This document shows, one piece after another, positions 5,921-28,388 of a stretch of 32,799 bases of DNA. Position 1 is the first letter of the stretch. Each line of letters opens with the position of its first letter. The notes under the pieces are model-generated. The model was not told where the DNA came from. It made no database searches and saw only the letters and a program-made list of their open reading frames with translations. The DNA is from a virus. A program made the position numbers and the translations under genes. The stretch covers positions 1-32,799 of the IMG/VR virus record IMGVR_UViG_3300033183_000402. One strand, written 5' to 3'.

Positions 5921-7564
5921 TCAACCAGCTCGCCATTTAACCTCGCCGATGACCGCAAATCGCTCTGATGACTTGCTTATCATCTCGGTTTCGTAGTTCG
6001 GGTTGTCGCTCATCACCACAAAATCACCGTCAATCGACCGCTTGAGCCGCTTGATTTTGAGGTCGTCACCATAGCGAATGGCGTAGACCTTGCCATCTTT
6101 GATTTGGCTCACCGGCTTGCAATCAACCAAAACGATATCGTCGTCGTCCAGGTAGGGCGACATGGAGTCCCCATGCACTCGGAAGCACTTGGCGGTCTTT
6201 GCGTCTATGCCCCGGCTGCTAAAGAAGCTTCGGCGAAACACAAGCGTCTCCTCCTGCACGTCCGGGTGGTACTCGGGCGCTGCGCTGCCCCCGCCAGCGG
6301 CAAAGCGCACCTCGTATAAGCCGACCTCGGCGTAAGTCTCATTGAACTGATCAACGCTGCGTACCGTGGACGGGGCTTCGCCTTCCTCTTGCAAGCCCAT
6401 CTCAAGGGCTTGGGACGAAATCCCAAAGACCATCGCCAGCATCTTGATTGAGGCCGGGGAGGGCGGTGTGTAGCCGTTTTCCCAGTTGGATACCGCCTGA
6501 ACCGACACGTCGAGCAGCTTGGCTACCTCGGTCACGCTCAAGCGGCAGCGCTTGCGCCAGCGGCGGATACGCTTGCCCAGCGCCTCATTGCCCATTTCGT
6601 TGGCTAAATACTTGGCTTGCTGGCTCAGGGCGTCCGTGTCTTGTTGGGTGCTTCCATCGGCTTTTTCCGCAACATCGGCCGCTGCCAACTTAAAGTCGTT
6701 TGCTCGAGTTGGGCGTCCGGTCAGAAGGCGGACGAAATCGTCGAGCCTTTTTTCGTCGGGGTTGGTTTGAAACCAATCGTTAAACAGCTGCTCTAGGTGT
6801 GGGTGCGACGGAAACTCGATGCGCTTGTCTTTGCCTTTGAAGCGCATATACGTGCCGCCGGGGTACCGTTCGGCCAGAATTTCTTTAACCCGGCGAAGCT
6901 GTGCCTCTGCCTCGCCATCAGCGGGGGCTTGCCACTGTTGACTAGCCCACAAATCCTCGACGTAGGCGCTCAGGATGTTGGCCTCAAGTTTCATGCACTG
7001 GGCGGTGACAAGCGTCTCCATGATGGTGTCATCACTGAGCGCGGACTCTGCCGCCGTCGCCACATTGGTCGAGATTAAATACTGCCCGTATATCGAAGCA
7101 GCCTTTTCTTTGACATCCAGCCACGGTGGGTTAGGGGTGCCGAAGTGAATCTCGCACAAAGCACGCCCAACCTCAAGCACTTCATCTTCAGCTAAGTCAA
7201 CCGAGCGCAAGATTTCATACGCATCGCGGTCGCGCTTGCGAAGGGCGTCTTTGTCGGTCAATTCTTTGTAGGTGTACTTGCGTGACTCACTGGGTTTGCT
7301 GTCACCAAACAGGTCAAGCAAGCCCCTGACAACCTGCTTGGCTTCACGCCCGTCGCTTTGGCGGATGCGCTCCTCAATCACATCCAAGCCCGAGCGAATC
7401 ACTTTTTTTGCGTCTGAGTCCCTTGGGAATACGTGGAGGTTGCCCTTCTTTGTCTTTGTCTTTACGCCCTTGGGGTTTTCGCCATCAGCCGTACGGCGCA
7501 CCTTGCTCTCAAGGGGTGCGGCCAAAAAGCCAATCATCGGCTCGTCAGGTTTCTTGGTAGCCAA
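5921..7564 (-). CDS. CI/LexA-type phage repressor (XRE HTH plus S24 peptidase) carrying an N-terminal extension of about 325 aa with unknown function
   Basis: 547 aa.
- HTH around residues 328-385: LGKRIRRWRKRCRLSVTEVAKLLDVSVQAVSNWENG.
- Candidate Ala-Gly autocleavage site in VRFAAGGGS.
- S24 Ser in HGDSMSP and Lys in LKIKRL.
- TTG start with GGAGA 6 nt upstream.
- Residues 1-325 match nothing I recognise. Confidence 0.85.
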   Translation of the reverse strand: MATKKPDEPMIGFLAAPLESKVRRTADGENPKGVKTKTKKGNLHVFPRDSDAKKVIRSGLDVIEERIRQSDGREAKQVVRGLLDLFGDSKPSESRKYTYKELTDKDALRKRDRDAYEILRSVDLAEDEVLEVGRALCEIHFGTPNPPWLDVKEKAASIYGQYLISTNVATAAESALSDDTIMETLVTAQCMKLEANILSAYVEDLWASQQWQAPADGEAEAQLRRVKEILAERYPGGTYMRFKGKDKRIEFPSHPHLEQLFNDWFQTNPDEKRLDDFVRLLTGRPTRANDFKLAAADVAEKADGSTQQDTDALSQQAKYLANEMGNEALGKRIRRWRKRCRLSVTEVAKLLDVSVQAVSNWENGYTPPSPASIKMLAMVFGISSQALEMGLQEEGEAPSTVRSVDQFNETYAEVGLYEVRFAAGGGSAAPEYHPDVQEETLVFRRSFFSSRGIDAKTAKCFRVHGDSMSPYLDDDDIVLVDCKPVSQIKDGKVYAIRYGDDLKIKRLKRSIDGDFVVMSDNPNYETEMISKSSERFAVIGEVKWRAG

Positions 7565-7986: not shown

Positions 7987-8848
7987 TTGGATAAAACTGC
8001 GGTCTGACCTCATCACCAGTCCGAAAGTTGTCCGCATTTCGTCCGCATTACGGGCGCATAAGTTGACGGTGATTGGCGCATTGCACGCAACATGGGTGCT
8101 GTTTGACGCGCACTCAGAGGACGGGGTGCTCACGGGTTACACGCCCGAAGCCTTGGACGAGTACCTCAATTTACCCGGTTTTGCCGAGGCAATGATGGGG
8201 GTTGATTGGCTCACCAATACCGGCGAAAGCCTTGCCATGCCTAGGTTTGACAACCACAACGGTCAGTCAGCCAAGCGCCGGGCAATGGAGTCTGAGCGCA
8301 AGAGAGCCGTCCGCAAATTGTCCGCATCCAATGCGGACGTTTTGCCCCCTAGAGAAGAGAAGAGAAGAGAAGATATTTCTATAGAGAGAGAAGCGGCGTC
8401 CCCCACAGGGGACGACTCCCCCACCCAGCAGGTGGTTAGGGAAAAGGCACCCCGCTTTTGCATCGACTATGAAGCCATTTGCGAGGCGTTCAACAACGCG
8501 TTTCCTGATGCTAGGCCCGAGACACCCGACGGCTTGGCAACACAAACCCGGGAGCGGTTGCTTGATACCTCCAAGGCGCTGATACGCGAGTTGCTGAGTG
8601 GGGATGAATTGAAATCCGCACGCCAAGAAGCAATCACCGATGCTTGGACGGCCTTCTTTCTCAGGTGCTCGACCTCCGACTTTTTGCGGGGCAAGCGCAG
8701 CTTTGGCGATAAAAAGCCATTTCAGATTGGGCTGGTCAACATCATCAACCGCACCATGTTCCCCAAGGTTTTGAGCGGCGAGGCTTACTTCGATGAAGAC
8801 ACTCGTTCCCTCAAGCGCTGGGTGCAGGAGCAAACGGCTAACGCCTGA
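7976..8848 (+). CDS. Putative replication initiator / replisome-organizer-like protein
   Basis: The track ORF starts at 7928. I prefer the ATG at 7976 because GGAGG lies 6 nt upstream. The N-terminus MAGDWIKLRSDLITSPKVVRIS resembles replisome-organizer N-domains. The gene carries clustered GTCCGCA iterons and a charged linker (REEKRREDISIERE). It occupies the lambda O position after cro. Confidence 0.6.
   Translation: MAGDWIKLRSDLITSPKVVRISSALRAHKLTVIGALHATWVLFDAHSEDGVLTGYTPEALDEYLNLPGFAEAMMGVDWLTNTGESLAMPRFDNHNGQSAKRRAMESERKRAVRKLSASNADVLPPREEKRREDISIEREAASPTGDDSPTQQVVREKAPRFCIDYEAICEAFNNAFPDARPETPDGLATQTRERLLDTSKALIRELLSGDELKSARQEAITDAWTAFFLRCSTSDFLRGKRSFGDKKPFQIGLVNIINRTMFPKVLSGEAYFDEDTRSLKRWVQEQTANA
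8030..8047 (+). repeat. Iteron pair GTCCGCAT (8030-8036 and 8041-8047), 11-bp phasing
   Basis: Sequence GTTGTCCGCATTTCGTCCGCATTA read directly. Confidence 0.7.
8309..8338 (+). repeat. Iteron cluster: GTCCGCA at 8309-8315 and 8320-8326 (11-bp phasing), plus an inverted copy TGCGGAC at 8332-8338
   Basis: Sequence CCGTCCGCAAATTGTCCGCATCCAATGCGGACG read directly. One more copy sits at 8975-8981 in the next gene. Confidence 0.7.
8352..8390 (+). repeat. (GAGAA)x4 polypurine tract followed by an AT-rich stretch and a GA repeat
   Basis: GAGAAGAGAAGAGAAGAGAA (8352-8371), then GATATTTCTATA, then GAGAGAGAAG. It lies immediately 3' of the iteron cluster, inside the linker-coding part of the replication gene. 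Confidence 0.7.
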
Positions 8849-10531: not shown

Positions 10532-10746
10532 TTCTTTGTCCAAAGTGCGACGCCCGGATGGGTGTCAAGGAGACCAAGCAGCACAAGCACGGCGTTTTGC
10601 GCCGTAAGTACTGCCCAAATTGTGGTGCTCGCGTCGTGACCGTTGAGTCGGTCATGGAGGTATTAGAGAAGCGGCAATCGGTAGAGGAACGTATTGAGCG
10701 GTTTGTACCCGCGCTGGAGCAAGCATGGCTTTTGATGAAAAGATAG
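10516..10746 (+). CDS. Zinc-ribbon protein (Ogr/Delta- or NrdR-like CxxC...CxxC)
   Basis: 76 aa. CPKCDARMGVKETKQHKHGVLRRKYCPNCGARVVTVESV. The start is uncertain, with a TTG alternative at 10528. Confidence 0.5.
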   Translation: MEFILILCPKCDARMGVKETKQHKHGVLRRKYCPNCGARVVTVESVMEVLEKRQSVEERIERFVPALEQAWLLMKR

Positions 10747-11243
10747 TCCGGGCCTCGACCAGCAAGAACCTGCGCCACCTCGAGCGCCCCTGTGACGTTG
10801 ACGTTTTGGGAGCTAGTGGGATGGCCGCGGCTAACCAAGGCTTGGGTCATTGGGCGTTTAGGGTCAAGTTCCTGCGGGAGCCGAGCATCTTGCATCGCCT
10901 GAGAGACCGGGTCAGGGCGATGGTTGTAGGGCGTGCACGCACCCGCCGTATCCGGGCAAAGGTCGGCGTCCTACATTCGATTGCCGATGCTGCGGTTGCT
11001 TGGTGGGTGAACGATATCTGTCCGCGGTGCAAAGGGGTTCAGTTTGAAAAAGCAGGGCAGACCTTATCAACGCGCGCTTGCCATACCTGCCGCGGTACGG
11101 GCAAACGACGGGAGCCAACGGCCAAAGACATCAAGGCAGACTTGACGCCTGAGAGGTTCGAGGCGGTATTTGGCGATGCGGTGACACGGCTCGAGGAGGC
11201 GTGCACTGAGTACCGGAGTGCGGTGGTGAAGCGATACCGATAA
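10725..11243 (+). CDS. Lambda-Q-like zinc-finger protein, candidate late-gene antiterminator
   Basis: 172 aa. It has two CxxCxGxG-type motifs, CPRCKGV and CHTCRGTG, as in lambda Q (CRDCHGTG, CGRCKGVG). It is the last gene before a 330-bp non-coding region that holds a promoter-like element and a strong terminator. GGAG RBS. Confidence 0.55.
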   Translation: MAFDEKIVRASTSKNLRHLERPCDVDVLGASGMAAANQGLGHWAFRVKFLREPSILHRLRDRVRAMVVGRARTRRIRAKVGVLHSIADAAVAWWVNDICPRCKGVQFEKAGQTLSTRACHTCRGTGKRREPTAKDIKADLTPERFEAVFGDAVTRLEEACTEYRSAVVKRYR

Positions 11244-11270
11244 AAGCCCGGACGCACTAAATGTGGTGAG

Positions 11271-11298
11271 TTGCAATTGTGGAGGCACTCGCTACCAT
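11271..11298 (+). promoter_or_regulatory. Candidate late promoter (PR'-like)
   Basis: TTGCAA (11271-11276), 16 nt, TACCAT (11293-11298). It lies about 75 nt upstream of the terminator. The hexamer matches are weak. Confidence 0.3.
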
Positions 11299-11373
11299 CA
11301 CACCTATAAGAACAATAACTATCTTGACCATTTGAGGGGCAAGCTCGCCCTGAAATTTTCAAGGTAAAGAAAG

Positions 11374-11402
11374 GCCCGCCTAGAGCGGGCTTTGTTGTTT
11401 TT
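11374..11402 (+). terminator. Rho-independent terminator (tR'-like) between the Q-like gene and the late genes
   Basis: GCCCGC (11374-11379), loop CTAGA, GCGGGC (11385-11390), then TTTGTTGTTTTT. Confidence 0.8.
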
Positions 11403-11573
11403 GGTTAGTCGCAGTTGCCAACTGAATCTTATTACGACTGACCCCAAAGTGCCAGTGCCGTTCTTAGTGGCGCGATAAAAAACAGCGGCAGCACGTTGAT
11501 GCGGGACAGTCCGAGGTTATTGGTCTCCTTGACCCGGACGGCAGGCGCGTGCCTATTTGATTGCGAGGTTTGT

Positions 11574-11741
11574 ATGCCACCAGTATCCAAAGCGCAGCAT
11601 CGCTTCATGCAAGCCGCGGCCAACGACCCACAGATGCGAAAGAAGCTCGGCGTCAGCCGTCAGGTCGCGCGTGAGTTCGTAAAGGCCGCCGAGATGGGCC
11701 GTGGCTACCAATCGCTGCCTGCCAAAAAGGGCAAAAAGTAA
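11574..11741 (+). CDS. DUF3008-like small protein
   Basis: The track ORF starts at 11496. I prefer the ATG at 11574, which has GAGG upstream. 55 aa, MPPVSKAQHRFMQAAANDPQMRKKLG..., typical of the small DUF3008 phage proteins. Its stop overlaps the next start (TAATG). Confidence 0.65.
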   Translation: MPPVSKAQHRFMQAAANDPQMRKKLGVSRQVAREFVKAAEMGRGYQSLPAKKGKK

Positions 11742-13150
11742 TGGCTGGCTTGTTTGGCCCTGCTCCAAAAGAGCCGTACTACGCCAAGCGAGTACGTGGC
11801 GAGGTGCCCAAAGGCTACCGGCAAGTCGCTGGTTTTTTGGCTGAGACGCCGGGCTTTGCTGGTGATGCGGTATCCGCGGCTGACCTAATCAGCGGCATCA
11901 AGGACAAAGATTGGCTCAAGGCGAGCTTGGCTGGTGTATCGCTGCTGCCGGGCATCCCCAACCTTGGCGGCATCATCATTGGCCGCAAAGCCAAAACCTT
12001 TGACGAGGGCGCTGCCAAGCAGTACTTGGAGAACAAGACCGCGGGTGCGCCAAAGGAAACCAACTGGGCGCTGACCGGTACGGGGCAGACGCCACTGGGT
12101 GATGTCGTGCAAGAAATTGACGACAGCGGCGCTTATCTCAAAAGCACCATTCCGGTGGTCGAGGAGCCAAAGGTCATTTACTCCCGCCTGGAAGACATGA
12201 CCAAGCGCAACGCGGATGGGTTGGACGAGGTTGCCTACAAGCAGACCCGAGATGAATACGCCCGCCAAATGGATAGGGCGGTACGGCTGGGGAACATCTT
12301 TGAGCACCCTGAGTTGTACAAGGCCTACCCCGAGATTGCTGACATGCGTGTCTCAGGACTGTATGAGACAACGGGTCGGTTGCGTGGTTCTCTTAGCCCG
12401 GGTGAAAACCGCATCCGCGTTAAGTCAAGCGCCGACCCTGACCAGCAGAGGTCAACTCTCTTGCATGAGATACAGCACGCTATTCAGTTCAAAGAGGGCT
12501 TTCCCTTGGGTGGTAACACCTCCCAGGCAGAGGCGGCAGTGGATGCTGCTATGCGACGCGATATGTCTGGCCCAACGCGTGAAAAGGCTGTTTACAACGC
12601 CATCGCTGCTGAGGTAGGGCAGGTTAACCGCGTGCGGTACGCCCGGCGACTTAAGGAACTCTCTACCTCCGAGACCATCACTCCGCGACGTATTTTCAAT
12701 CAGGCGGGATGGTACGAACACGGTGACAAGATTCGCCAAGAGTTGGGGCCGATGCCCAAGCGCTCGGGTGAGGAGCAAAAGCGCTGGCTGCGGGATGCCG
12801 CGGATAGGCTGTATCGCCACGAGGATGCCAAAGGCCGTTTTGACAGCCCGTACCACGATTTATCTGACCGTGACCTAGTAAACATGCTCCGCAGGCAAGA
12901 GCGCAAGCTGGACAAGCAGCAGCCCAAGCTTAAGGAGTTTTTTGACCAAGAGAACCGTTGGCGGCGCATCAACCAGTTAGGCCCGGGCGAGAAGTACCTG
13001 GCGCATGGTGGTGAGGCTGAGTCACGGCTGGTGCAGGCTCGCCGGGATTTGAACCCGGTCGAGCGCAAGGTTTACTACCCGTTTGGTGAGCGGGATGCGG
13101 GTTACCCGTACGCGTATGACATGTCGCCATCGCTTTTGTTTAGACCCTGA
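11741..13150 (+). CDS. Hypothetical protein with an HExxH zincin-type motif
   Basis: 469 aa. STLLHEIQHAIQFKEG is encoded at about 12464-12478. The rest is not recognised. It is translationally coupled to the DUF3008 gene and lies upstream of the terminase genes. Confidence 0.7.
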   Translation: MAGLFGPAPKEPYYAKRVRGEVPKGYRQVAGFLAETPGFAGDAVSAADLISGIKDKDWLKASLAGVSLLPGIPNLGGIIIGRKAKTFDEGAAKQYLENKTAGAPKETNWALTGTGQTPLGDVVQEIDDSGAYLKSTIPVVEEPKVIYSRLEDMTKRNADGLDEVAYKQTRDEYARQMDRAVRLGNIFEHPELYKAYPEIADMRVSGLYETTGRLRGSLSPGENRIRVKSSADPDQQRSTLLHEIQHAIQFKEGFPLGGNTSQAEAAVDAAMRRDMSGPTREKAVYNAIAAEVGQVNRVRYARRLKELSTSETITPRRIFNQAGWYEHGDKIRQELGPMPKRSGEEQKRWLRDAADRLYRHEDAKGRFDSPYHDLSDRDLVNMLRRQERKLDKQQPKLKEFFDQENRWRRINQLGPGEKYLAHGGEAESRLVQARRDLNPVERKVYYPFGERDAGYPYAYDMSPSLLFRP

Positions 13151-13186
13151 GGCCGACGGCCTCCCTTGCGGAGAGTCGGGAAAACT

Positions 13187-13483
13187 ATGGACGATTCCAC
13201 AAAAATAGAGAGAAATAGAGCGGCTGGCAAGCCTCCCCGTGCTGGGATGGGCAGGCCAAAGGGTTGCTCTAACAAGAAGACACAGGCTGCCAAAGACGCC
13301 ATTGCAGACGCTGCACTGGCTTTGGGTGGCACCAAACGGCTGGTCGAGTGGGCCAAGTCCGACCCGAACAATGAGCGGGTGTTTTGGGGCACGATTTACC
13401 CCAAGCTGCTGCCTCTGCAGGTCGGTGGTGATGCTGGCAACCCGATTGAGCACATGGTTGTTGCATGGGCAAGCGAGAGCTAG
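13187..13483 (+). CDS. Putative small terminase subunit / DNA-binding packaging protein
   Basis: The track ORF starts at TTG 13166. I prefer the ATG at 13187. 98 aa. The basic N-terminus GRPKGCSNKKTQ is typical of terS-like/DUF5681 proteins. It lies upstream of terL. Confidence 0.45.
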   Translation: MDDSTKIERNRAAGKPPRAGMGRPKGCSNKKTQAAKDAIADAALALGGTKRLVEWAKSDPNNERVFWGTIYPKLLPLQVGGDAGNPIEHMVVAWASES

Positions 13484-13526
13484 TTAATTCAAACACTCTG
13501 GGCACGTTTGAGGCACGTTGGGTTAA

Positions 13527-13916
13527 TTAGCGGCGCGCCTCGGGGAGTTGCTTCCATAAATCGATGAGAGTTCCCACAACCGTATTTTGGGGGGAAGCGG
13601 TGCAGCGTTTTTTGATTTCCCAGTAAAAGCTGTCGTAGTCGGGGAGTGCCTTTGCGCTCACAGGACGGTTGTTATCCATTTGGGCGGATGCAGTCCCAAG
13701 GTTAAGCCCGCTCAAAAAAGAAGAGAAGGCAACATTCCAAGTTCGTATCCATTGTTTGTTGTCTTTTACTTCCGAGGAGTCTGTTAAAAAGCTGCCGCAG
13801 GAGGCTGTAACGAGTCCCTTCATAACAGAGTCCTCTTTCGCATGGGGTTGACCCATTGCGCCAATCACTAGAGTCAAGGCCAGGGCCAATCGATAGGCTA
13901 TTTGACGAAACAACAT
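13527..13916 (-). CDS. Exported hypothetical protein (Sec signal peptide), antisense moron between terS and terL
   Basis: The track start is GTG 13922. I prefer the ATG at 13916 because GGAGG lies 5 nt upstream. 129 aa. N-terminus MLFRQIAYRLALALTLVIGAMGQPHA|KED. Two Cys in the mature part. The DNA is visibly more AT-rich than the flanks. Confidence 0.75.
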   Translation of the reverse strand: MLFRQIAYRLALALTLVIGAMGQPHAKEDSVMKGLVTASCGSFLTDSSEVKDNKQWIRTWNVAFSSFLSGLNLGTASAQMDNNRPVSAKALPDYDSFYWEIKKRCTASPQNTVVGTLIDLWKQLPEARR

Positions 13917-13927
13917 GAGCACCTCCT

Positions 13928-15199
13928 ATGGGAAAACGTGAGTTGATTATCCCCTACTCGCCTCGGGCGCAGCAGTTAGAGATTCATGGTGCGATGGCTG
14001 ATGCCCGCTTTGGGGTAGTGGTGGCGCATCGGCGGCTGGGTAAGACGGTCGCTGCCATCAACCACATCATCAGGAAGGCGGTTGAGTGCCAAAAGGAGGC
14101 ACCGCGTTACGCCTACATCGCCCCGACGTACACCCAAGCCAAGCGGATTGCTTGGGACTACCTGGTCAAGTACACCGAGGTGCTGGAGGCCAAGCAGAAC
14201 ATCACCGAGTTGCGGGTGGACTTTTGGAATCGGCGCATCCAGTTGGCGGGGTCAGACAACCCTGACTCGCTGAGGGGTCAGTACTTTGATGGCGTCATCT
14301 TGGACGAGTGGGCTGACCAAAACCCGCGCTTGTGGTCTGAAATCATCCGCCCGGCACTGGCTGACCGCCATGGGTGGGCGTTGTTTCTAGGTACACCCAA
14401 GGGTGCCAACCACTTTAAGGACATTCGCGACCGCGCTGAGGTCGAGGACGGGTGGAAGCTGCTGGAGTTCAAAGCCAGCGAGACAGGTATCTTGGCATCC
14501 GATGAGTTGGCTCAAGCCCGCCGCGAGATGGGCGAGGAGAAATACCTCCAGGAGTTTGAATGTTCGTTTACCGCTGCGGTGGAGGGTTCGTACTATGGAA
14601 GTGTCCTTAACGACCTTGATGGACGCGGGCGGCTGGTTGATATTTCTCGCGATGATTTATGCAAGACATTTACTGCGTGGGATTTAGGGGTTGGCGATAG
14701 CACAGCCATTTGGGTGGCTCAGGTAACCGGGCAAGAGGTCAGGCTCATCGACTTTGTGGAGAACCACGGGGTGGGGCTTGATTGGTACGTGAATTGGCTG
14801 CGCGAGCGCAAGTGGCACACCGCCGAGCACATCCTGCCTCATGACGTTCAGGTCAGAGAGTTGACCACGGGCAAGAGCCGAAAAGAGGTACTCGAGGATG
14901 CGGGGCTGTCTATCACGGTGGCACCAAGGCTGACGATTGACGATGGCATCCAAGCGGTGCGCCGGATGTTGCCGAGGTGCTGGTTCAACATGCCAACAGT
15001 CAGGCAGGGGTATGACGCCTTGGCTAACTACCGCCGTGAGTACGACGACAAGCGCAACGTGTTTTACGACAAGCCCCTGCACGACTGGGCCAGCCACGCG
15101 TCTGACGCGTTTCGGTACTTGGCCACGGGTATGCAGGACAAGACAACGGCAAGCGACTGGTCAAAGCCGCTGGCGGTCAATACCTCGTGGGTGGTGTAG
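13928..15199 (+). CDS. terL: Terminase large subunit
   Basis: 423 aa. Walker A-like AHRRLGKT, Walker B-like GVILDEW, and a C-terminal nuclease region with AWDLGVGDSTAIWV. Confidence 0.9.
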   Translation: MGKRELIIPYSPRAQQLEIHGAMADARFGVVVAHRRLGKTVAAINHIIRKAVECQKEAPRYAYIAPTYTQAKRIAWDYLVKYTEVLEAKQNITELRVDFWNRRIQLAGSDNPDSLRGQYFDGVILDEWADQNPRLWSEIIRPALADRHGWALFLGTPKGANHFKDIRDRAEVEDGWKLLEFKASETGILASDELAQARREMGEEKYLQEFECSFTAAVEGSYYGSVLNDLDGRGRLVDISRDDLCKTFTAWDLGVGDSTAIWVAQVTGQEVRLIDFVENHGVGLDWYVNWLRERKWHTAEHILPHDVQVRELTTGKSRKEVLEDAGLSITVAPRLTIDDGIQAVRRMLPRCWFNMPTVRQGYDALANYRREYDDKRNVFYDKPLHDWASHASDAFRYLATGMQDKTTASDWSKPLAVNTSWVV

Positions 15200-15292: not shown

Positions 15293-17317
15293 ATGAACGA
15301 ACCAAAACTAAAGGCGCTTCTGGAAAGCGAAATCGAGGCGTCGATTGGGTACGTCCAGTCGGAGACGACCGACCAGAGGCAGGAGGCGCTTGATTTCTAC
15401 CTGCGTCAGCCCTATGGCAACGAGGTAGAGGGCAGGAGCCAAATCGTCACGGGCGAGGTGGCCGAGGTAGTAGACGCCGCCTTACCCCAGTTGCTGCGTA
15501 TCTTTACCGCTGGCGACGATGTGGTGAACTTTGAGCCGGTAGCGCCTGGTGATGAGCCGTTGGCTAAACAGGCCACGGACTACTGCAACTGGATTTTCTA
15601 CCGCGACAACCCTGGCTTTCAAATCCTGCACCACTGGTTCAAAGACGCGCTCATCTCCAAGGTGGGGATTGTTAAGGCGTGCTACGACTACGTGACCGAC
15701 ACCACGGTTGAGACCTACCAAAACCTCACGGGCGAGGAGTTGGCGCTTCTGTTGGCGGATGAGTCCATTGAGGTGGTATCCCAAGACGCCACGATGGTTG
15801 AGCAGACCGACCCGATGGGCAACGTCATACAGATGGAGTCCTACGACGTTGCGGTACGCAAGAAGCGGGTCACTGGGCGGGTACAGATTGAGAACGTGCC
15901 GCCCGAGGAGTTTCTTATATCCAAGCGGGCACGCACCATAGAGGACTCACCCTTTGTGGCGCACCGCAAGTTGGTGTCGCGCAGCGACTTGGTAGCAATG
16001 GGGTACGACGCCACGGTGGTCGCCAACCTAGCCACCTATGACTCGCTCAGCTTTACGCCCGAGAGAACGGCACGCTTTAGCCAAGGCGAGCAGCCCCATG
16101 AAGCCCAGTCTTACGACTCGGTGATGCAGGAGGTTGAGGTCTTTGAGTGCTATGTGCGGGCCGATGTGAACGACGACGGGGTAGCCGAGTTGCTACGGGT
16201 GGTCTACGCGTCCAATGAGGTGCTGGACGCGCAGGAGTACGACCACGTGCCGTTTCACGCCTTGTGCCCGATACCCATCCCGCACAAGTTCTATGGGCAG
16301 TCGCTGGCCGAGCGGGCAATGGATATCCAGCTACAGAAGTCCACCATTACCCGCCAGATGCTGGACAACCTTTACCTGACCAACAACGCCCGGGTAGGAG
16401 CGGTAGAGGGGCAAGTCAACCTAGATGATTTGCTCTCAAGCACGCCTGGTGGGGTTGTACGGATGAAGAACCCCAACGCGGTGGTGCCGCTACAGGTGGC
16501 TCCAGTAGCCCAGCAGGCGTTCCCCATGTTGGAGTACCTTGACCAAGTGCAAACCAAGCGCACGGGCGTAAGTGAGGCGATGGGGCTAGACCCCAACATC
16601 TTGCAAAACGTAACTGCCACGGCGATTGCCAGCTTCCAAAACGCCAGCGGCTCAAAACTGGAGTTGATTGCTCGCATCTTTGCCGAGACGGGAGTCAAAA
16701 GCCTGTTTAGGGGCATCCTGCAACTGGTGTGCAAGTACCAAGACAAGCCGCGCATTATTCGGCTGCGCGACCAGTACGTGCCCATGGACGCCCGTATGTG
16801 GTCGAACCAGTACGACGTGCAGATATCGGTAGGCTTGGGTACGGGTAGCCGCCAAGAGCAGTTGGCGATGCTATCCATGATTTTGGATAAGCAAGAGCGC
16901 ACCCTAGCTCAGCAAGGCCCGGCAAACCCACTGGTATCTCTTGGGCAGTACCGCAAGACGTTGGGCCGGTTGATTGAGGCCGCAGGGTTTAAGGACTCCG
17001 CTGCGTTCTTTAAGCCCATCACTCCGCAGCAAGACCAAATGTTGTCGAACCTGCCACCGCAGCAGCCGCAGCCTGACCCGCAGTTGCAGATGATGATGGC
17101 GCAGGCACAGGCACAGATGGAAATTGATAAGGCGCGGCTAGCGGCTGAGATACAGGCCAAGCGCGAGAAAGCTGAGGCTGACATTCGCCTTGAGCGCGAG
17201 AAGATGCAGGCTCAGATGGAACTCAAACGCGCCGAGTTTGAGGCTGAGGTGCAGTTAAAGGCTGCGCAGGTCGGCGCTGGCATCGCCAACAACATCGAGA
17301 TACCCGGCAATGGCTAA
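15293..17317 (+). CDS. Portal protein
   Basis: 674 aa, directly after terL. N-terminus QRQEALDFYLRQPYGNEVEGRSQIVTGEVAEVVDAALPQLLRIF is portal-like. The C-terminus is a long Gln/Ala/Glu coiled coil. GAGG RBS. Confidence 0.85.
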   Translation: MNEPKLKALLESEIEASIGYVQSETTDQRQEALDFYLRQPYGNEVEGRSQIVTGEVAEVVDAALPQLLRIFTAGDDVVNFEPVAPGDEPLAKQATDYCNWIFYRDNPGFQILHHWFKDALISKVGIVKACYDYVTDTTVETYQNLTGEELALLLADESIEVVSQDATMVEQTDPMGNVIQMESYDVAVRKKRVTGRVQIENVPPEEFLISKRARTIEDSPFVAHRKLVSRSDLVAMGYDATVVANLATYDSLSFTPERTARFSQGEQPHEAQSYDSVMQEVEVFECYVRADVNDDGVAELLRVVYASNEVLDAQEYDHVPFHALCPIPIPHKFYGQSLAERAMDIQLQKSTITRQMLDNLYLTNNARVGAVEGQVNLDDLLSSTPGGVVRMKNPNAVVPLQVAPVAQQAFPMLEYLDQVQTKRTGVSEAMGLDPNILQNVTATAIASFQNASGSKLELIARIFAETGVKSLFRGILQLVCKYQDKPRIIRLRDQYVPMDARMWSNQYDVQISVGLGTGSRQEQLAMLSMILDKQERTLAQQGPANPLVSLGQYRKTLGRLIEAAGFKDSAAFFKPITPQQDQMLSNLPPQQPQPDPQLQMMMAQAQAQMEIDKARLAAEIQAKREKAEADIRLEREKMQAQMELKRAEFEAEVQLKAAQVGAGIANNIEIPGNG

Positions 17318-24024: not shown

Positions 24025-24837
24025 ATGGCAGTAATGACGACCACCACTGACATCGACCCGACAATTAAGAAGTTTCGGGACTACGGGCTGGATGAGTCTA
24101 AACGGCTCTATCAAGGTGACACGCCGCAGTACTACCCGGGGCAGACCTACGTTGACCCAAGTCAGCAAACGCAGCAGGCCATGACGGCGATGCAGAACCG
24201 TGCGATGCAGGGTAGCGGGCTTACGTCGGCGGCGCAGAACGCGGCAATGCAAACGCTGCAAGGTGGCTTTCTTGGGGGGAACCCGTTTTTTAGTCAGGCG
24301 TTTCAGCCTGCCGCTCAGGAAGCCCAGCGCTCGTTCATGGACTCCATGAATCAAATCAACTCCAGCGCATCCAAGGCGGGGCGGTATGGCTCCAACGCCA
24401 TGGCTAACCTGCAAGACCGCGCCATGGACTCCTACTCCAAGTCGCTGACCAATACGGCGGGGCAGTTGGCTTATCAAAACTACGACACCGAGCGCGGACG
24501 TCAGCAGGCCATGATTGGCGCTGCTCCAGCCTTGGCAAATCAAGACTATTACGACATCAACCAGTTATACCAATCCGGGCAAATGGCTGAGGGTTACCAG
24601 CAGCAGGCGCTACAAGACGACATCAACCGCTTTAACTACGAGCAGAACCTGCCCCAGCTAAAACTCGACCGCTACCTGCAAAACGTCTATGGGGCGCCGG
24701 GTGGGCAAATCACAACCCAACCCCTTTACCGAAACCAAGGGGCAGGGATTTTGGGCGGGGCGCTGGCTGGCAGCCAAATCTCCGCTCTTGGCCCGTATGG
24801 GTGGCTCTTAGGTGGACTCTTGGGTGGGATGGGTTAA
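24025..24837 (+). CDS. Gln-rich virion protein with a C-terminal glycine-zipper membrane segment (possible internal/ejection protein)
   Basis: 270 aa. The C-terminus is GAGILGGALAGSQISALGPYGWLLGGLLGGMG. Confidence 0.55.
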   Translation: MAVMTTTTDIDPTIKKFRDYGLDESKRLYQGDTPQYYPGQTYVDPSQQTQQAMTAMQNRAMQGSGLTSAAQNAAMQTLQGGFLGGNPFFSQAFQPAAQEAQRSFMDSMNQINSSASKAGRYGSNAMANLQDRAMDSYSKSLTNTAGQLAYQNYDTERGRQQAMIGAAPALANQDYYDINQLYQSGQMAEGYQQQALQDDINRFNYEQNLPQLKLDRYLQNVYGAPGGQITTQPLYRNQGAGILGGALAGSQISALGPYGWLLGGLLGGMG

Positions 24838-24840
24838 ACC

Positions 24841-26286
24841 ATGAACCTGTTTACCGAACCAAGCTGGCTTAAGGCTGGCGGCTTATTTAGCGAACCGGAC
24901 ATCGCCTCGTTGCGTGAAAGCGCTAACCGAGACGCCATCATGCAAATGGCAATGGGGCTGCTTGCGCAAAGCGGCTACTCCACCAAGCCTCAGACGCTAG
25001 GCGAGGGGTTGGCCTCCGGTGTGCTGGCTGGGCAAAAGGCGCATCGGCAGGCTTACCGCGATGCTTTGGCCGACAAGATGACCGAGGCTAAGCTGATTAC
25101 GCTAGACAACGAGAGGAAGCTAAAGCCGATTCAGGCGGGCATTTTGGAGTCAAAGGTCACGCCGGGACAGTTTGGCTACAACCTCTCAACCGTTGACCCA
25201 GTCGCGCAACAGTTAGCCCAAGAAAACCTTGCAATGGCTGAGACACCCGAGCAAATCGACTCGGTCTTAAAAAGCCTGCAACAGTCAGCGTCGTACAACG
25301 CGCCCAAAGGTGCTGAGACGGGGTTTGTGGCTCCGCAGGCAACGATGCAAATCAATCGCGAGAACCTGAACAAGTATCGGGCGCTGGCTACGGATGAGCA
25401 ATTTAACTCCATGCTTCAAGGGTTGAAAGCTCAGCAAGAGTTATTCCGAAACAAGCCGGTTGGTGACCCGTTTAAGGCCGCCGACGGTCAAGGCAACCCG
25501 GTATTTGTGCAGCGTTACGAAGATGGCAGCCAGCGGGTGCTGGGTGGCTTTACACCGCCCGCCGATTTGACGAACGACCAAAGAAACTACGCAGCGGGTA
25601 AAGCCGACCCAGCATTTCTTAAGTTTTTGCAAAACAAATCCAAGGGGCAGGTGATTAACGTCTACCCCGAGGGCGCGGTTGGGCCGGGCAAAAAGGGCCA
25701 AGACGCTGCGGACCAGGGCATTGACTCAATGGGCGCTCAACGCGTCAAACTGGAGCGAGTGTTTTCCGGTTTTGAAACCGACTTCTTGACCATACCAACT
25801 CAGATTGCTATGGGTTGGTCAAACCTCAAGGAGAGGAGCGGTCTTAAGCTAGACAGACAAACGGCTGACAAACTTACACGGTTTGCGAGGTTTAGCTCAG
25901 ACGCCATGGCCGCGCTGAACGCCTACATCAACGCCGTAACTGGCGCAGCCATCGGAAGTAGCGAGGAAGAAGCGCGTATTCGCAGAGCTTTCCCTGACCC
26001 GCAAAAAGACGGCCCGACGCAGTTCATGTCCAAGTTGCAGGCCAAGTTGCAAGAGGCTGCCTTGTTCCAAGCCCGTTACCACTACGTCAAGACAAAGGGC
26101 TACAAGGTTGGAACGCCAGAGTTTAAGCAAGCCCTGCTGAGCGTCGATGTGGACGCGGATATCCCGCGCCTGATGCGCGAGGAGACAAAACGCCAAATCA
26201 GCAACATTCCCAACTTTGACCCGAACAACCCCGACATGCTTCGCAAGGTTGAGCAAAACGTTGCCCGGGTCTTTGGGCTACTTTAG
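24841..26286 (+). CDS. Hypothetical virion protein (possible internal/ejection protein)
   Basis: 481 aa. Tightly packed, lying between the small tail/virion proteins and the tail fibre gene. Confidence 0.55.
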   Translation: MNLFTEPSWLKAGGLFSEPDIASLRESANRDAIMQMAMGLLAQSGYSTKPQTLGEGLASGVLAGQKAHRQAYRDALADKMTEAKLITLDNERKLKPIQAGILESKVTPGQFGYNLSTVDPVAQQLAQENLAMAETPEQIDSVLKSLQQSASYNAPKGAETGFVAPQATMQINRENLNKYRALATDEQFNSMLQGLKAQQELFRNKPVGDPFKAADGQGNPVFVQRYEDGSQRVLGGFTPPADLTNDQRNYAAGKADPAFLKFLQNKSKGQVINVYPEGAVGPGKKGQDAADQGIDSMGAQRVKLERVFSGFETDFLTIPTQIAMGWSNLKERSGLKLDRQTADKLTRFARFSSDAMAALNAYINAVTGAAIGSSEEEARIRRAFPDPQKDGPTQFMSKLQAKLQEAALFQARYHYVKTKGYKVGTPEFKQALLSVDVDADIPRLMREETKRQISNIPNFDPNNPDMLRKVEQNVARVFGLL

Positions 26287-26294
26287 GGGTAGGC

Positions 26295-28388
26295 ATGGCA
26301 GGCACCTTAGTTGAAGACGCCATCGTCGCAAACATTCTCAAGCCGTCCCGTTCGGTCGAGGCAGCCACAAGAGAAGCTACGCCCATAAGCGACCAAATCG
26401 TGAAACGTATCCTGAATCGCGGGCTACCGGCCCAAGAGCAGGTCTTTTACGACGAGACCAAGCAGGCTTCAGGTGCGGCTGCTACGGCGGCGGGTGTAGC
26501 CACAGACCCGCAAAGGGCTGCGGAGATATTCGCCAAGTACCGTGGGATTCCCGTTGACCGTTACAAAATCATCGACGGAGAGGTTGCCTACCAAGCGGAG
26601 CCAGGCGGAAAGTACTACGCTGAGGTGCCCGGCTTCTTAACCAGCCCCGGGCAAAAGCTGCAATACATAGCCCCTGACATCGCCGAGACCGCCGTTGGGG
26701 TGGCTGGCAATATCGTGACCTCCCCCATGCTGATGGCTGGCCCTGCTGGCATCGCGGGCTATACCGGCGTAAACGCGCTGATTGGCTCAGGGCTGCGGGC
26801 AGGGAGGCAAGCATTGGCTGGGCAGCCGTTTAACGCGGCTGACGTTGCGATTGCTGGCGGCTTGAACGCCATCCCTGCTACTGGCGCTGGTGTCGGGCGG
26901 GCAAAGATTGCCGATAGGGCGCTGGCCCGCGATATCAAGCAGATGGATACCGCTGCCACCCAAGCGTTACGCGACAAGGCTCGTGCCCAAGGCATCACGC
27001 TGACCCCTGCCGAAATGACTGGCTTGCGCTCGCTAAAGGACGAGCAAAAGATGCTGGGCAATATGCCGCGCTCAGGCGAGGTGATGCAGGACTTCTACAA
27101 CCAGCGCTTTATCAAAGAGGTGCAGCCAGCCGTTAGCCGGTTTTTGGACAGTATCAGCAAAACCGACGATTTGTTTGACGCGGGTATGGCTACCCAGCGG
27201 GCGTTCACCCAGCAACGCAAAAACATGGTGGAAGCAAGGGCGTCGGCGGTCAAACCTCTGTATGCCCAGGCGTACCAGTCAGACGCACCGGTGTCCGCGT
27301 CCAAGGCAATCAACTTTGTCACCAGCAAGATGGAGAACGCCAAAGACACTGAGCTTCGGGCGTTGCAGCGCATCTACAAAATGCTGACCAAGGAGACACC
27401 CAAGGTCGACGATGCGGGCGCGGTGATGCGGGACAAGAACGGCATCATTGAAAACGAGGTGCTGCCTGAGAACCGAATCGAGGCGATGCACCGTATCCGC
27501 ATGGCGCTGGACGCCCTATCCAAGGAGGAGGGGGTGCAGGGCTTGGACGCGGTGATTCAAACCGAGATTGGGCAAATCCGCGAGCTAATCAATAGCGAAC
27601 TCAAGTCCATCCCGGCCTTTAGAGCTGCCGACCAAAAGTTTGCTGATATGTCGGTGCCGATTCAACGCTTTGACGACTCCCGGGCGTTTGGCATTACCAA
27701 GATGAACCTAGACAACGTGGAGCAAGTGGCCGAGAAGATTTTTGGCCCCAACTCCTCGCCGCAGACCATCAAGTACTTGCGCGACCAAGTCGAGGCGGTG
27801 AACCCCGACGCTTGGAAAGCCATCACCCGCAATTGGCTTGAGAAAACGTGGACTGAGATGCGACGGGTGCGTAAAGGCGCGACCGAGGAGCGTCGTGACG
27901 CTGGCGGCGACTGGGCTAGGTTCCTGCTGGGCGATTTAAGGGCGCAATCCAAACTGGTGAACGCCCTCGGCAACGAGTCTTATCAGGGGCTGCGTAACCT
28001 CACCGATGTATTACAGGCAGCGGCCAAGGTCAAGAAGATTGGCTCGGACACCGCCTTTAACGCCGAAATCATTGCTGAACTCAAACGCGAGGCTCCCGGG
28101 ACGCTGACCAAACTCGGCAAGCTCATTGGCACCGCAGTGACCCCTCAAAACTGGGGTACTTATATGCGGGACTGGGTGACCCAGCGCAGCTTTGATAAGC
28201 ACCTTGAGTCGATGGCGCGAATCATCACCAGCCCTGACGGGATGGAGAACTTGCGGCGCATCAAACGCATCAGCCACTCCAAGCCCGGGTTTTGGGCTGG
28301 GCTGACCACCGCTTTGGTTGATAGCGCCGCTGGCGGCACCGACCTCACCGATATTCCATACATGGAGGATTCCAATGGCAAAAACTAA
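26295..28388 (+). CDS. Large hypothetical virion protein (possible internal/ejection protein)
   Basis: 697 aa. It is the largest late gene and precedes the tail fibre. No tape-measure-like features. Confidence 0.55.
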   Translation: MAGTLVEDAIVANILKPSRSVEAATREATPISDQIVKRILNRGLPAQEQVFYDETKQASGAAATAAGVATDPQRAAEIFAKYRGIPVDRYKIIDGEVAYQAEPGGKYYAEVPGFLTSPGQKLQYIAPDIAETAVGVAGNIVTSPMLMAGPAGIAGYTGVNALIGSGLRAGRQALAGQPFNAADVAIAGGLNAIPATGAGVGRAKIADRALARDIKQMDTAATQALRDKARAQGITLTPAEMTGLRSLKDEQKMLGNMPRSGEVMQDFYNQRFIKEVQPAVSRFLDSISKTDDLFDAGMATQRAFTQQRKNMVEARASAVKPLYAQAYQSDAPVSASKAINFVTSKMENAKDTELRALQRIYKMLTKETPKVDDAGAVMRDKNGIIENEVLPENRIEAMHRIRMALDALSKEEGVQGLDAVIQTEIGQIRELINSELKSIPAFRAADQKFADMSVPIQRFDDSRAFGITKMNLDNVEQVAEKIFGPNSSPQTIKYLRDQVEAVNPDAWKAITRNWLEKTWTEMRRVRKGATEERRDAGGDWARFLLGDLRAQSKLVNALGNESYQGLRNLTDVLQAAAKVKKIGSDTAFNAEIIAELKREAPGTLTKLGKLIGTAVTPQNWGTYMRDWVTQRSFDKHLESMARIITSPDGMENLRRIKRISHSKPGFWAGLTTALVDSAAGGTDLTDIPYMEDSNGKN

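Follow-up and report, generated by a model that had tools for sequence, protein, structure and literature searches.

Why does a temperate phage carry a gene for a putative metallopeptidase at the head of its late genes, just ahead of those for DNA packaging? This question is raised by the IMG/VR virus record IMGVR_UViG_3300033183_000402, of which positions 1 to 32,799 were analysed here and are referred to as the window. The window is a temperate phage of 33 kb with an integrase, an S24/helix-turn-helix (HTH) repressor, YqaJ, NinB, an SU10-type capsid and adaptor, a scaffold and an ejection-protein-like gene. On its plus strand, positions 11741-13150 (ATG start, stop TGA at 13148-13150) encode a stand-alone protein of 469 aa that combines an LPD23-type domain with a zincin metallopeptidase core. 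An initial annotation of the locus had described this product as an HExxH protein that was otherwise unrecognisable and had linked it, from position and motif, to injected anti-defence proteins of polyvalent or ArdC-like type. Here we present evidence that the gene very probably encodes, as far as family identity alone is concerned, a stand-alone copy of an LPD23 + zincin module that is otherwise built into giant polyvalent proteins. We further propose that the product could be a late-made, capsid-packaged and injected metalloprotease acting on a host, possibly defence, protein, a complete statement whose chances we judge to be even.

The open reading frame (ORF) and the position of its motif are as first reported. 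HEIQH is encoded at 12464-12478 (+) within LLHEIQHAIQFKEG, residues 240-253 of the protein, and from their conservation H242, E243 and H246 are the predicted zinc ligands and catalytic base. One HExxH has a chance expectation of 0.008 in a protein of this composition, and the motif is meaningful because it is conserved across homologs. All conservation counts given here refer to an alignment of 80 homologous sequences in the numbering of the 469-aa protein. H242, E243, H246 and G257 are invariant (80/80), and HExxH is present in 160 of 160 fetched family members, so that the suspected zincin-type motif is genuine. Further conserved positions are found along the active-site helix (Q245 in 75, Q249 in 79 and E252 in 73 of the 80), in a C-terminal helix (Y419 79/80, G424 78/80, E425 79/80, R429 78/80, R434 78/80) and among the LPD23 motif residues (G81 78/80, T112 77/80, E125 79/80, D128 77/80). 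Candidates for the third metal ligand are E425, in the helix spanning residues 423-433, and E252, at the end of the HExxH helix.

The protein can be divided into a series of elements, all encoded on the plus strand. The first 78 or so residues (11741-11974) form a low-confidence leader that is rich in Gly, Ala and Pro (38%) and moderately hydrophobic, and includes the GVSLLPGIPNLGG patch. The Gly-rich patch GVSLLPGIPNLGGIIIG occupies residues 65-81. A transmembrane reading of this patch was rejected: the Kyte-Doolittle maximum over 19 residues is 1.56, and the GGIIIG end is the first LPD23 strand. Moderately hydrophobic, G/A-rich N-termini are a family trait, and only 2 of the 80 homologs exceed a Kyte-Doolittle value of 1.6. 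The leader is followed by an LPD23-like alpha/beta domain (residues 79-135, 11975-12145) with the motifs IxG(81), T112 and E125-I-D-D128-S-G-A, and then by a lineage-specific helical insert at residues 143-177. The zincin core (residues 183-259, 12287-12517) comprises a helix, three beta-strands and the active-site helix that ends at E252, after which comes the invariant G257. Beyond the core, a long charged helical region (residues 260-411, 12518-12973) leads to the conserved C-terminal helix Y419-LAHG-G424-E425-A-E427-S-R429-LVQA-R434 (12995-13045), recognised from the alignment. Short natural members of the family lack residues 260-411 (gaps in P0008-P0012) yet keep the C-terminal helix; therefore the long charged region is an insert between two catalytic helices. 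Variable inserts have been described for the metallopeptidases (MPTases) of polyvalent proteins (PMC5512222). The C-terminal half as a whole (residues 260-444) is modelled as helical and is 37% charged. Both the Gly-rich patch near the N-terminus and the charged helical character of the C-terminal half had been noted from the letters of the sequence and are borne out. The statement that the protein is otherwise unrecognisable has to be withdrawn in view of the LPD23-type N-domain, the GEAEAR helix and thousands of relatives.

The predicted structure is consistent with these assignments. A model computed with AlphaFold2 from the 80-sequence alignment has a mean predicted local distance difference test score (pLDDT) of 82 and a predicted template modelling score (pTM) of 0.73; residues 79-450 are confident and residues 1-78 are low, the leader having a pLDDT below 50-55. 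The core elements follow one another as helix 190-201, strands 203-207, 216-219 and 224-228, helix 233-252 with the HExxH, and a helix from residue 260 onward, with pLDDT >85 (>90 in the 260-411 insert). A model of the compact homolog P0008 (pLDDT 81) has the same order without this insert. The MPTase core fold has been defined as an N-terminal helix, a three-stranded sheet and two C-terminal helices, the first bearing HExxH, with a Glu from a later helix as third metal ligand (PMC5512222). The order of elements in the 469-aa model is a zincin topology that matches this description, and the fold prediction thus agrees with what the motif had suggested. A profile search of PDB sequences returned only IrrE (E 0.015, not significant). 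Among the predicted viral structures of BFVD, Foldseek found 14 matches at E<1e-3, most of them named 'large polyvalent protein associated domain-containing protein', together with EBPR podovirus 3 gp3. In terms of the models, the fold is zincin-like with no close solved relative.

Profile searches place the protein in a zincin and polyvalent-domain family. Pfam DUF6782 (putative metallopeptidase) matches residues 211-260 at 34 bits against a cutoff of 27, over profile positions 65-114 of 241, that is, the HExxH core alone, and Peptidase_M78 stays just below its cutoff (21.6 versus 22 bits). Pfam LPD23 (PF18838, 'large polyvalent protein associated domain 23') gives a weak match to residues 81-133 (15 bits versus a cutoff of 27). 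The LPD23 module lies directly N-terminal to the zincin core, and its family motifs align although its own score is sub-threshold. A word-index protein search retrieved 11 homologs with 29-43% identity, all 11 of which carry Pfam LPD23 and one of which (P0006) also carries ART-PolyVal. Such searches reached 12-14 proteins even with a profile, and family size was determined by exhaustive search of 1.84 billion representatives instead. This search gave 5,474 clusters (at 50% identity) at E<=1e-3 and 904 at E<=1e-10. The LPD23-zincin family comprises solo proteins of 300-650 aa and modules within proteins of 3,000-7,200 aa. In a Pfam scan the large proteins P0053, P0075 and P0059 contain two to four copies of LPD23 along with ART-PolyVal and a DUF6782-type zincin core, and the giant members have multiple HExxH copies apiece. 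The proposed link to polyvalent proteins is therefore shown by homology. In PHROGs the only matches are giant proteins of 1.6-3.4 thousand amino acids annotated as function unknown, and an NCBIfam scan gave no match. A profile scan of GTDB genomes found 156 distant relatives in many bacterial phyla, while a single-protein scan of the same genomes with the zincin found no close relative.

No effector domain besides the LPD23-zincin module and its helical inserts was found in the 469-aa protein by Pfam, PHROGs, NCBIfam or the AlphaFold2 model. A polyvalent protein needs at least two unrelated effector domains, and the present protein is a solo version that is not itself polyvalent. The LPD23-associated MPTase clade of polyvalent proteins was already defined computationally in 2017 and is in Pfam, to which the present gene adds a further solo member. 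In the literature searched, no paper names LPD23, DUF6782 or the accessions of either, and experimental studies of the LPD23-zincin clade were not found.

The location of the gene agrees with the initial description: a weakly Q-like gene and a terminator lie 5' of it, and a small terminase subunit (terS)-like gene, the terminase large subunit gene (terL) and the portal gene lie 3'. This slot had been said to hold normally only packaging genes, which is not the case. We surveyed 80 IMG/VR loci reached through the family profile, scanning with Pfam the large genes within three positions of each zincin gene. Downstream of the zincin genes there were 30 member hits to Terminase_6N, Terminase_3 or Terminase_6C and 8 to portals. 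Upstream there were about 16 terminase, 8 portal, 4 Sf6-type terS and 2 T7_gp14 hits. For the large neighbours overall, the count is about 34 terminase and 16 portal hits. In the marine SU10-like phage L001, terL is followed by genes for 353 and 36 aa, then by the zincin and the portal. In L004 the zincin follows genes for 472 and 829 aa, the sizes of terL and portal, and thus lies directly 3' of the putative portal in the classical MuF/gp7 position. In EBPR podovirus 3 the zincin relative gp3 lies upstream of two genes that are unannotated but have the sizes of terL and portal. A place beside or ahead of the packaging genes is the normal address of this family and no oddity of the present phage. 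By tblastn, the zincin core (residues 183-259) is about 36% identical over about 77 residues (E ~1e-6) to a giant protein of F116-like Pseudomonas phages. One such giant, H66_0060 of phage H66 (3,787 aa), is annotated in GenBank as 'verified by mass spectrometry as part of the virion'.

Sister phages reveal what else this slot can hold. When 12 kb of the window were compared by megablast with 50,697 phage records, no match was returned; close relatives were reached through homologs of the 55-aa peptide encoded just upstream of the zincin. In L087/L088 the terL protein is 84% identical to that of the window, whereas the zincin-family protein (559 aa, profile E 7e-48) is only 23% identical to the window zincin. 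The gene order in L087 is Q-like, a 157-aa ORF, the peptide, a 2-oxoglutarate-Fe(II) (2OG-Fe(II)) oxygenase, a second peptide copy, genes for 91, 559 and 426 aa, terS-like and terL. In L089/L090 the peptide is followed by a 2OG-Fe(II) oxygenase, a ParB_N + N6_N4 methyltransferase, an HTH-type small gene and terL, and no zincin was found in the slot of this 13 kb contig. L095 has the peptide, then a gene for 90 aa and another whose cytosine-5 methyltransferase motifs were identified by eye. The borders of the replaceable cassette can be read from blastn: relative to L087 it spans 11753-13201, similarity ending 11 nt into the zincin gene and returning 52 nt past its stop. Relative to L089, similarity ends at the end of the peptide gene and returns at 13500, with terL and portal at 81-90% nucleotide identity. 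Since sister phages fill the slot with a divergent zincin or with methyltransferases and a 2OG-Fe oxygenase, the zincin is a self-contained accessory cassette, exchangeable and placed first in the late operon, and is apparently dispensable for this type of virion. Its apparent dispensability and a slot shared with anti-restriction cargo argue against a terminase-accessory or head-maturation role and for an accessory role directed at the host. The G+C content of the zincin gene is about 0.58, the same as that of its flanks, so that composition gives no sign of recent foreign origin.

The small gene that precedes terL is a further point of difference: a 78-aa core with no family match is common to the window and L087, whereas L089 has an unrelated 114-aa HTH-type protein (7998-8342). 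The terL of L089 is nonetheless 81% identical in its DNA, and the presumed small terminase subunit therefore seems to have changed together with the cargo. Another difference is a 426-aa protein of L087 (10127-11407) that follows the zincin, has no family match and is missing from the window; it may be further cargo or a substrate.

The zincin gene is preceded by a gene for a basic peptide of 55 aa (pI 11.1) at 11574-11741 (+), with its ATG at 11574 and its stop TAA at 11739-11741. The two genes overlap in TAATG, the last A of the peptide stop being the A of the zincin ATG. The peptide belongs to phrog_16759 (E 7e-14), has a conserved core MPxxSKAQxRxMQAAA...VAREF and 82 relatives on viral contigs, and is similar to the N-terminal part of 'virion structural protein' PHROGs and of proteins from jumbo phages (among them phiKZ 165.1, 121Q gp50/51 and RaK2). 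It had been labelled DUF3008, which could not be reproduced: Pfam gave no DUF3008 match at E<=10, only Nif11 at 0.03, and its homologs are without a precomputed Pfam family. The initial annotation had also presented the peptide as coupled to the zincin. The overlap itself stands, but not its specificity. Peptides 76-89% identical precede other genes in L087, L089 and L095, and the zincin profile matches none of the genes downstream of the peptide family at 80 viral loci. What lies next to the peptide at these loci varies, with SU10 adaptor, terminase, HNH and 2OG-Fe oxygenase genes among the neighbours. The overlap thus amounts to real translational coupling, yet the peptide is a conserved late-operon ORF that is not dedicated to the zincin. 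A dedicated peptide-zincin pair as a general rule was rejected, the peptide preceding non-zincin genes in L089 and at the 80 loci.

Some further observations concern this peptide and other small ORFs. L087 contains two diverged peptide copies, at 7213-7380 before the 2OG-Fe(II) oxygenase and at 8001-8168 before the block of 91-aa, zincin and 426-aa genes; the first was merged out of frame into the 157-aa ORF by the gene caller. Members of the peptide family are followed, at 5 nt or less or with an overlap, by 2OG-Fe(II) oxygenases of the Oxy_5 type in L087 (7386-7958) and L089 (6149-6721) and of the Oxy_3 type in the unrelated L177 (4156-4803), a recurrent adjacency that may point to a link between peptide and oxygenase. 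In unrelated phages, LPD23-zincin genes are also directly preceded by small Lys/Arg-rich ORFs from several families unrelated to one another, whose stop often overlaps the zincin start. They include DUF6496-like, KQAVAIAYS-type and DUF6321-like ORFs and a 36-aa Lys-rich peptide, and were found in L006 (7328-7507), L007 (1178-1354), L058 (5579-5755), L060 (572-844), L013/L016/L021, L027 (5315-5605), L087 (8165-8440) and L001 (8004-8114). Such ORFs precede 5 of 49 zincin genes versus 2 of 92 other large genes (Fisher p ~0.05); this enrichment is borderline, and small-ORF calls are noisy.

Taken with the genomic address, these data are compatible with the following mechanism. The zincin would be transcribed late, together with the head proteins, by read-through of the terminator behind the Q-like gene. 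In this view the 55-aa basic peptide is a conserved late-operon leader whose translation is coupled to that of whichever gene comes next. The zincin would enter the capsid, possibly via its disordered Gly/Ala-rich N-terminal 78 residues, and would be ejected with the DNA at the next infection. There H242 and H246, together with E425 (or E252), would hold Zn2+, and E243 would activate water for cleavage of a host protein. The target would most plausibly be a defence or surveillance component encountered early in that infection; a defence target is favoured because the slot otherwise carries anti-restriction methylases. Packaging is suggested because a late-made counter-host enzyme would be useful only if carried into the next cell, and solo polyvalent domains among late structural genes have been argued to be likely deployed in the capsid (PMC5512222). 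For packaging, injection and a host target taken by themselves, we would put the chances at even or slightly below. A more specific version is doubtful: the zincin would destroy a restriction or defence protein at DNA entry and be interchangeable with the methyltransferases of the slot, which would then be a counter-defence island, with a conserved leader and the 55-aa ORF at its head, whose cargoes either modify the DNA or cleave the defender.

Several points weigh against a packaged and injected protease. The sole relative annotated from mass spectrometry, H66_0060, shares just the core of about 80 residues at 36% identity, and the presence in the virion or ejection of any solo LPD23-zincin rests on inference. 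No capsid-targeting, MuF or portal-binding domain is recognisable in the 469-aa protein. The protease activity of family members is likewise predicted, and the methyltransferases in the same slot amount to guilt by association. Searches of the PDB with Foldseek returned nothing at E<1e-3 for the full model, the best hits being IrrE/PprI (probability 0.9-0.99 over 50-117 columns) and selecase. With the P0008 model they again returned zincins, namely IrrE, anthrax lethal factor, SPRTN, selecase, ArdC, abylysin/jannalysin and HtpX, all at E>0.09. The best E values of these PDB searches were 0.1-0.5. Finally, self-processing of polyvalent proteins has been put forward as the first-choice role of these MPTases, citing P1 DdrB (PMC5512222). 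Self-processing has no obvious substrate in a solo protein, but processing in trans could still take place.

Such processing in trans would make the zincin a maturation protease for the phage's own virion or ejection proteins, for example the 270-, 481- and 697-aa proteins encoded at 24025-28388, where an ejection-protein-like gene (24025-24837) is followed by large unknown proteins. The role proposed for MPTases in general, polypeptide processing (PMC5512222), fits this idea, as does the additional 426-aa gene right after the zincin of L087. It is nevertheless hard to square a protease that co-evolves with its substrates with zincins that are 23% identical between sisters whose structural genes are at about 80-90%. 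L089 moreover shares terL and portal (81-90% nt) without a zincin in the slot, which argues against an essential role unless a copy lies beyond the 13-kb contig, and we consider trans-processing improbable. A somewhat better, though still unlikely, explanation is that the protease is made late but stays in the cytoplasm of the producing cell, where it would degrade a host factor or a late-acting abortive-infection or defence protein. Expression from the late operon, the lack of a recognisable packaging signal and a family defined only computationally are all in keeping with this, and the swappable, accessory nature of the gene would fit any non-essential enzyme directed at the host. What points to the particle instead is the persistence of the family among terminase, portal and head genes in unrelated phages, and the occurrence of the same module inside giants, at least one of which is an annotated virion component.

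The remaining explanations find less support from the same data. That the 55-aa peptide is a substrate, an in-trans inhibitor or a packaging adaptor of the zincin is favoured by the TAATG overlap, by the small basic ORFs of other families that abut zincin genes (the 5/49 versus 2/92 above) and by the two L087 copies, one ahead of each cargo block. This pairing is very improbable, however, in view of a peptide that precedes a 2OG-Fe oxygenase without any zincin in L089 and 90-aa and methyltransferase-like genes in L095, of the 0/80 peptide-family viral loci with a zincin downstream and of an enrichment that is borderline. The initial annotation had itself named an ordinary terminase accessory or HNH-like packaging factor as the alternative, and the position immediately 5' of terS and terL would suit one. 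No HNH or terminase-related family matches in Pfam, PHROGs or NCBIfam, and the gene is missing from the L089 slot despite near-identical packaging genes. A non-proteolytic enzyme or structural protein with HExxH belongs here as well, as the motif also occurs in alphaKG-HExxH hydroxylases (PMC13434306), but the fold and profile matches are to zincin peptidases only; together we regard these possibilities as highly improbable. The least credible explanation, for which we see hardly any room, is a regulatory protease of IrrE/ImmA type (M78, COG2856) that cleaves a repressor in the lysis-lysogeny switch. IrrE/PprI are the closest solved relatives by both profile and fold, the M78 score misses its cutoff by little, and the phage is temperate, with an integrase and a repressor. 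The similarity is nonetheless confined to about 50 residues around HExxH, no Xre-type partner is adjacent, the phage repressor has its own self-cleaving S24 domain, and the zincin lies in the late operon behind a terminator. The LPD23 domain, the GEAEAR helix and the polyvalent membership do not fit such a regulator either.

Comparison with known systems places the protein nearest to the LPD23-MPTase modules (Iyer, Burroughs, Anand, de Souza & Aravind 2017, PMC5512222). It shares with them the LPD23-type N-domain, the HE(x)QHxxQ helix, the C-terminal G-E-A-E-A-R helix and a setting among the head and packaging genes of portal-terminase phages. It differs in being solo, with no second effector domain, a sub-cutoff LPD23 score and the inserts at 143-177 and 260-411. 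The H66_0060 giant, whose counterparts in relatives are named 'PLxRFG domain-containing' or 'internal virion' protein, has the zincin core of residues 183-259 in common with it. That giant is eightfold larger, however, shares only about 80 residues, has methyltransferase-like and other domains, and is encoded beside lysis genes and not ahead of the terminase. With IrrE/PprI and ImmA, the best PDB matches though none significant, the likeness is limited to the core of strand-turn-strand and HExxH helix, whereas the N- and C-terminal elements and the genomic context differ and the present gene is without a partner repressor. ArdC of plasmid R388 (a single-stranded-DNA-binding ArdC-N domain plus MPTase, PMC7213743) is likewise a zincin on an invading element, is needed against restriction in the recipient, and falls in the same broad MPTase assemblage (PMC5512222). 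The present protein nevertheless has no match to ArdC-N or MPTase-PolyVal (PF18818) at E<=1, Foldseek against the ArdC structures 6sna and 6i89 gave E 0.66-3 (probability 0.23 at E 0.66), and delivery of ArdC is by conjugation; the description as ArdC-like is not upheld. P1 DdrB and the C-terminal HExxH domain of the N4 virion RNA polymerase (vRNAP) are also HExxH zincin domains in head-packaged proteins (PMC5512222, PMC13434306). Both are parts of very large proteins without a detectable sequence match to the present one, and their activity is likewise unproven.

Few domains are as common in phage polyvalent proteins as zincins of LPD23 type, which form thousands of clusters here, and the family is without an assigned substrate or demonstrated activity. 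The lineage described here offers a small and tractable case: a single-domain version in a 33-kb temperate phage, with near-isogenic relatives that have a very different zincin or methyltransferases in the same slot. If the protein is packaged and cleaves a defence protein, proteolysis by an injected zincin would be established as an anti-defence strategy and a very large family would gain a function. If it is not packaged, a widely repeated inference on solo polyvalent-type domains would be corrected.

The surroundings of the gene were also annotated. Upstream, a weak candidate for a Q-like antiterminator lies at 10725-11243 (+); it matches phrog_127 (E 2.3e-4) and CxxC...CxxC zinc-ribbon-like sequences, and has orthologs in the same place in L087, L089 and L095. 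Between it and the late genes is an intrinsic terminator at 11371-11403 (+), with a 9-bp stem containing 6 G-C pairs, a strong hairpin at 11371-11393 and a T-run, which is kept in L089. A sigma-70 scan of 11243-11574 called no plus-strand promoter; what speaks for a late promoter is therefore the Q-like gene, together with the terminator and a conserved TTGACC block. From the terminator to the first late ORF extends a non-coding block of about 170 nt (11403-11573, +), which recurs in L089 (5435-5602), L095 (828-1000) and L087 (6676-6839) and is conserved in all four related phages more than many coding parts. RNAalifold folds it into several stems (-33 kcal/mol), and in 5 of the pairs both sides have changed, four sequences being too few to judge. 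The block might encode a late-leader or antitermination RNA or might be a cos/pac site. Rfam gave no hit at gathering thresholds, this block included, and no tRNAs were found. A second conserved non-coding block, at 11306-11365 (+) just 5' of the terminator hairpin, contains CTATCTTGACC and CTCGCCCTGAAATTT, is common to the four relatives and is a candidate late promoter or Q-utilisation region.

Downstream, the terS-like small gene (13187-13483, +) has its conserved core from the M at 13248. It is so named by position only, matches phrog_11043 (function unknown) and is near-identical to the 78-aa gene of L087 located just 5' of terL. The terminase large subunit (13928-15199, +) is identified by Pfam Terminase_6N and phrog_2, and the SU10-type portal (15293-17317, +) by Pfam SU10_portal (E 2e-219). 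On the minus strand the phage repressor (5921-7564, 547 aa from a TTG start) has its HTH_3 and Peptidase_S24 domains at residues ~327-541 only. Its counterpart in L087 has 216 aa; in the window, either the ORF has been called too long or the first ~300 residues form an N-terminal domain that is not recognised. A minus-strand ORF of 131 aa (13527-13922), located between the terS-like gene and terL and without a family match, has a low G+C content (~0.50 versus 0.58) and a signal-peptide-like N-terminus, MLMLFRQIAYRLALALTLVIGAMG. L089 has a minus-strand ORF of 129 aa in the same place, and the 131-aa ORF looks like a moron.

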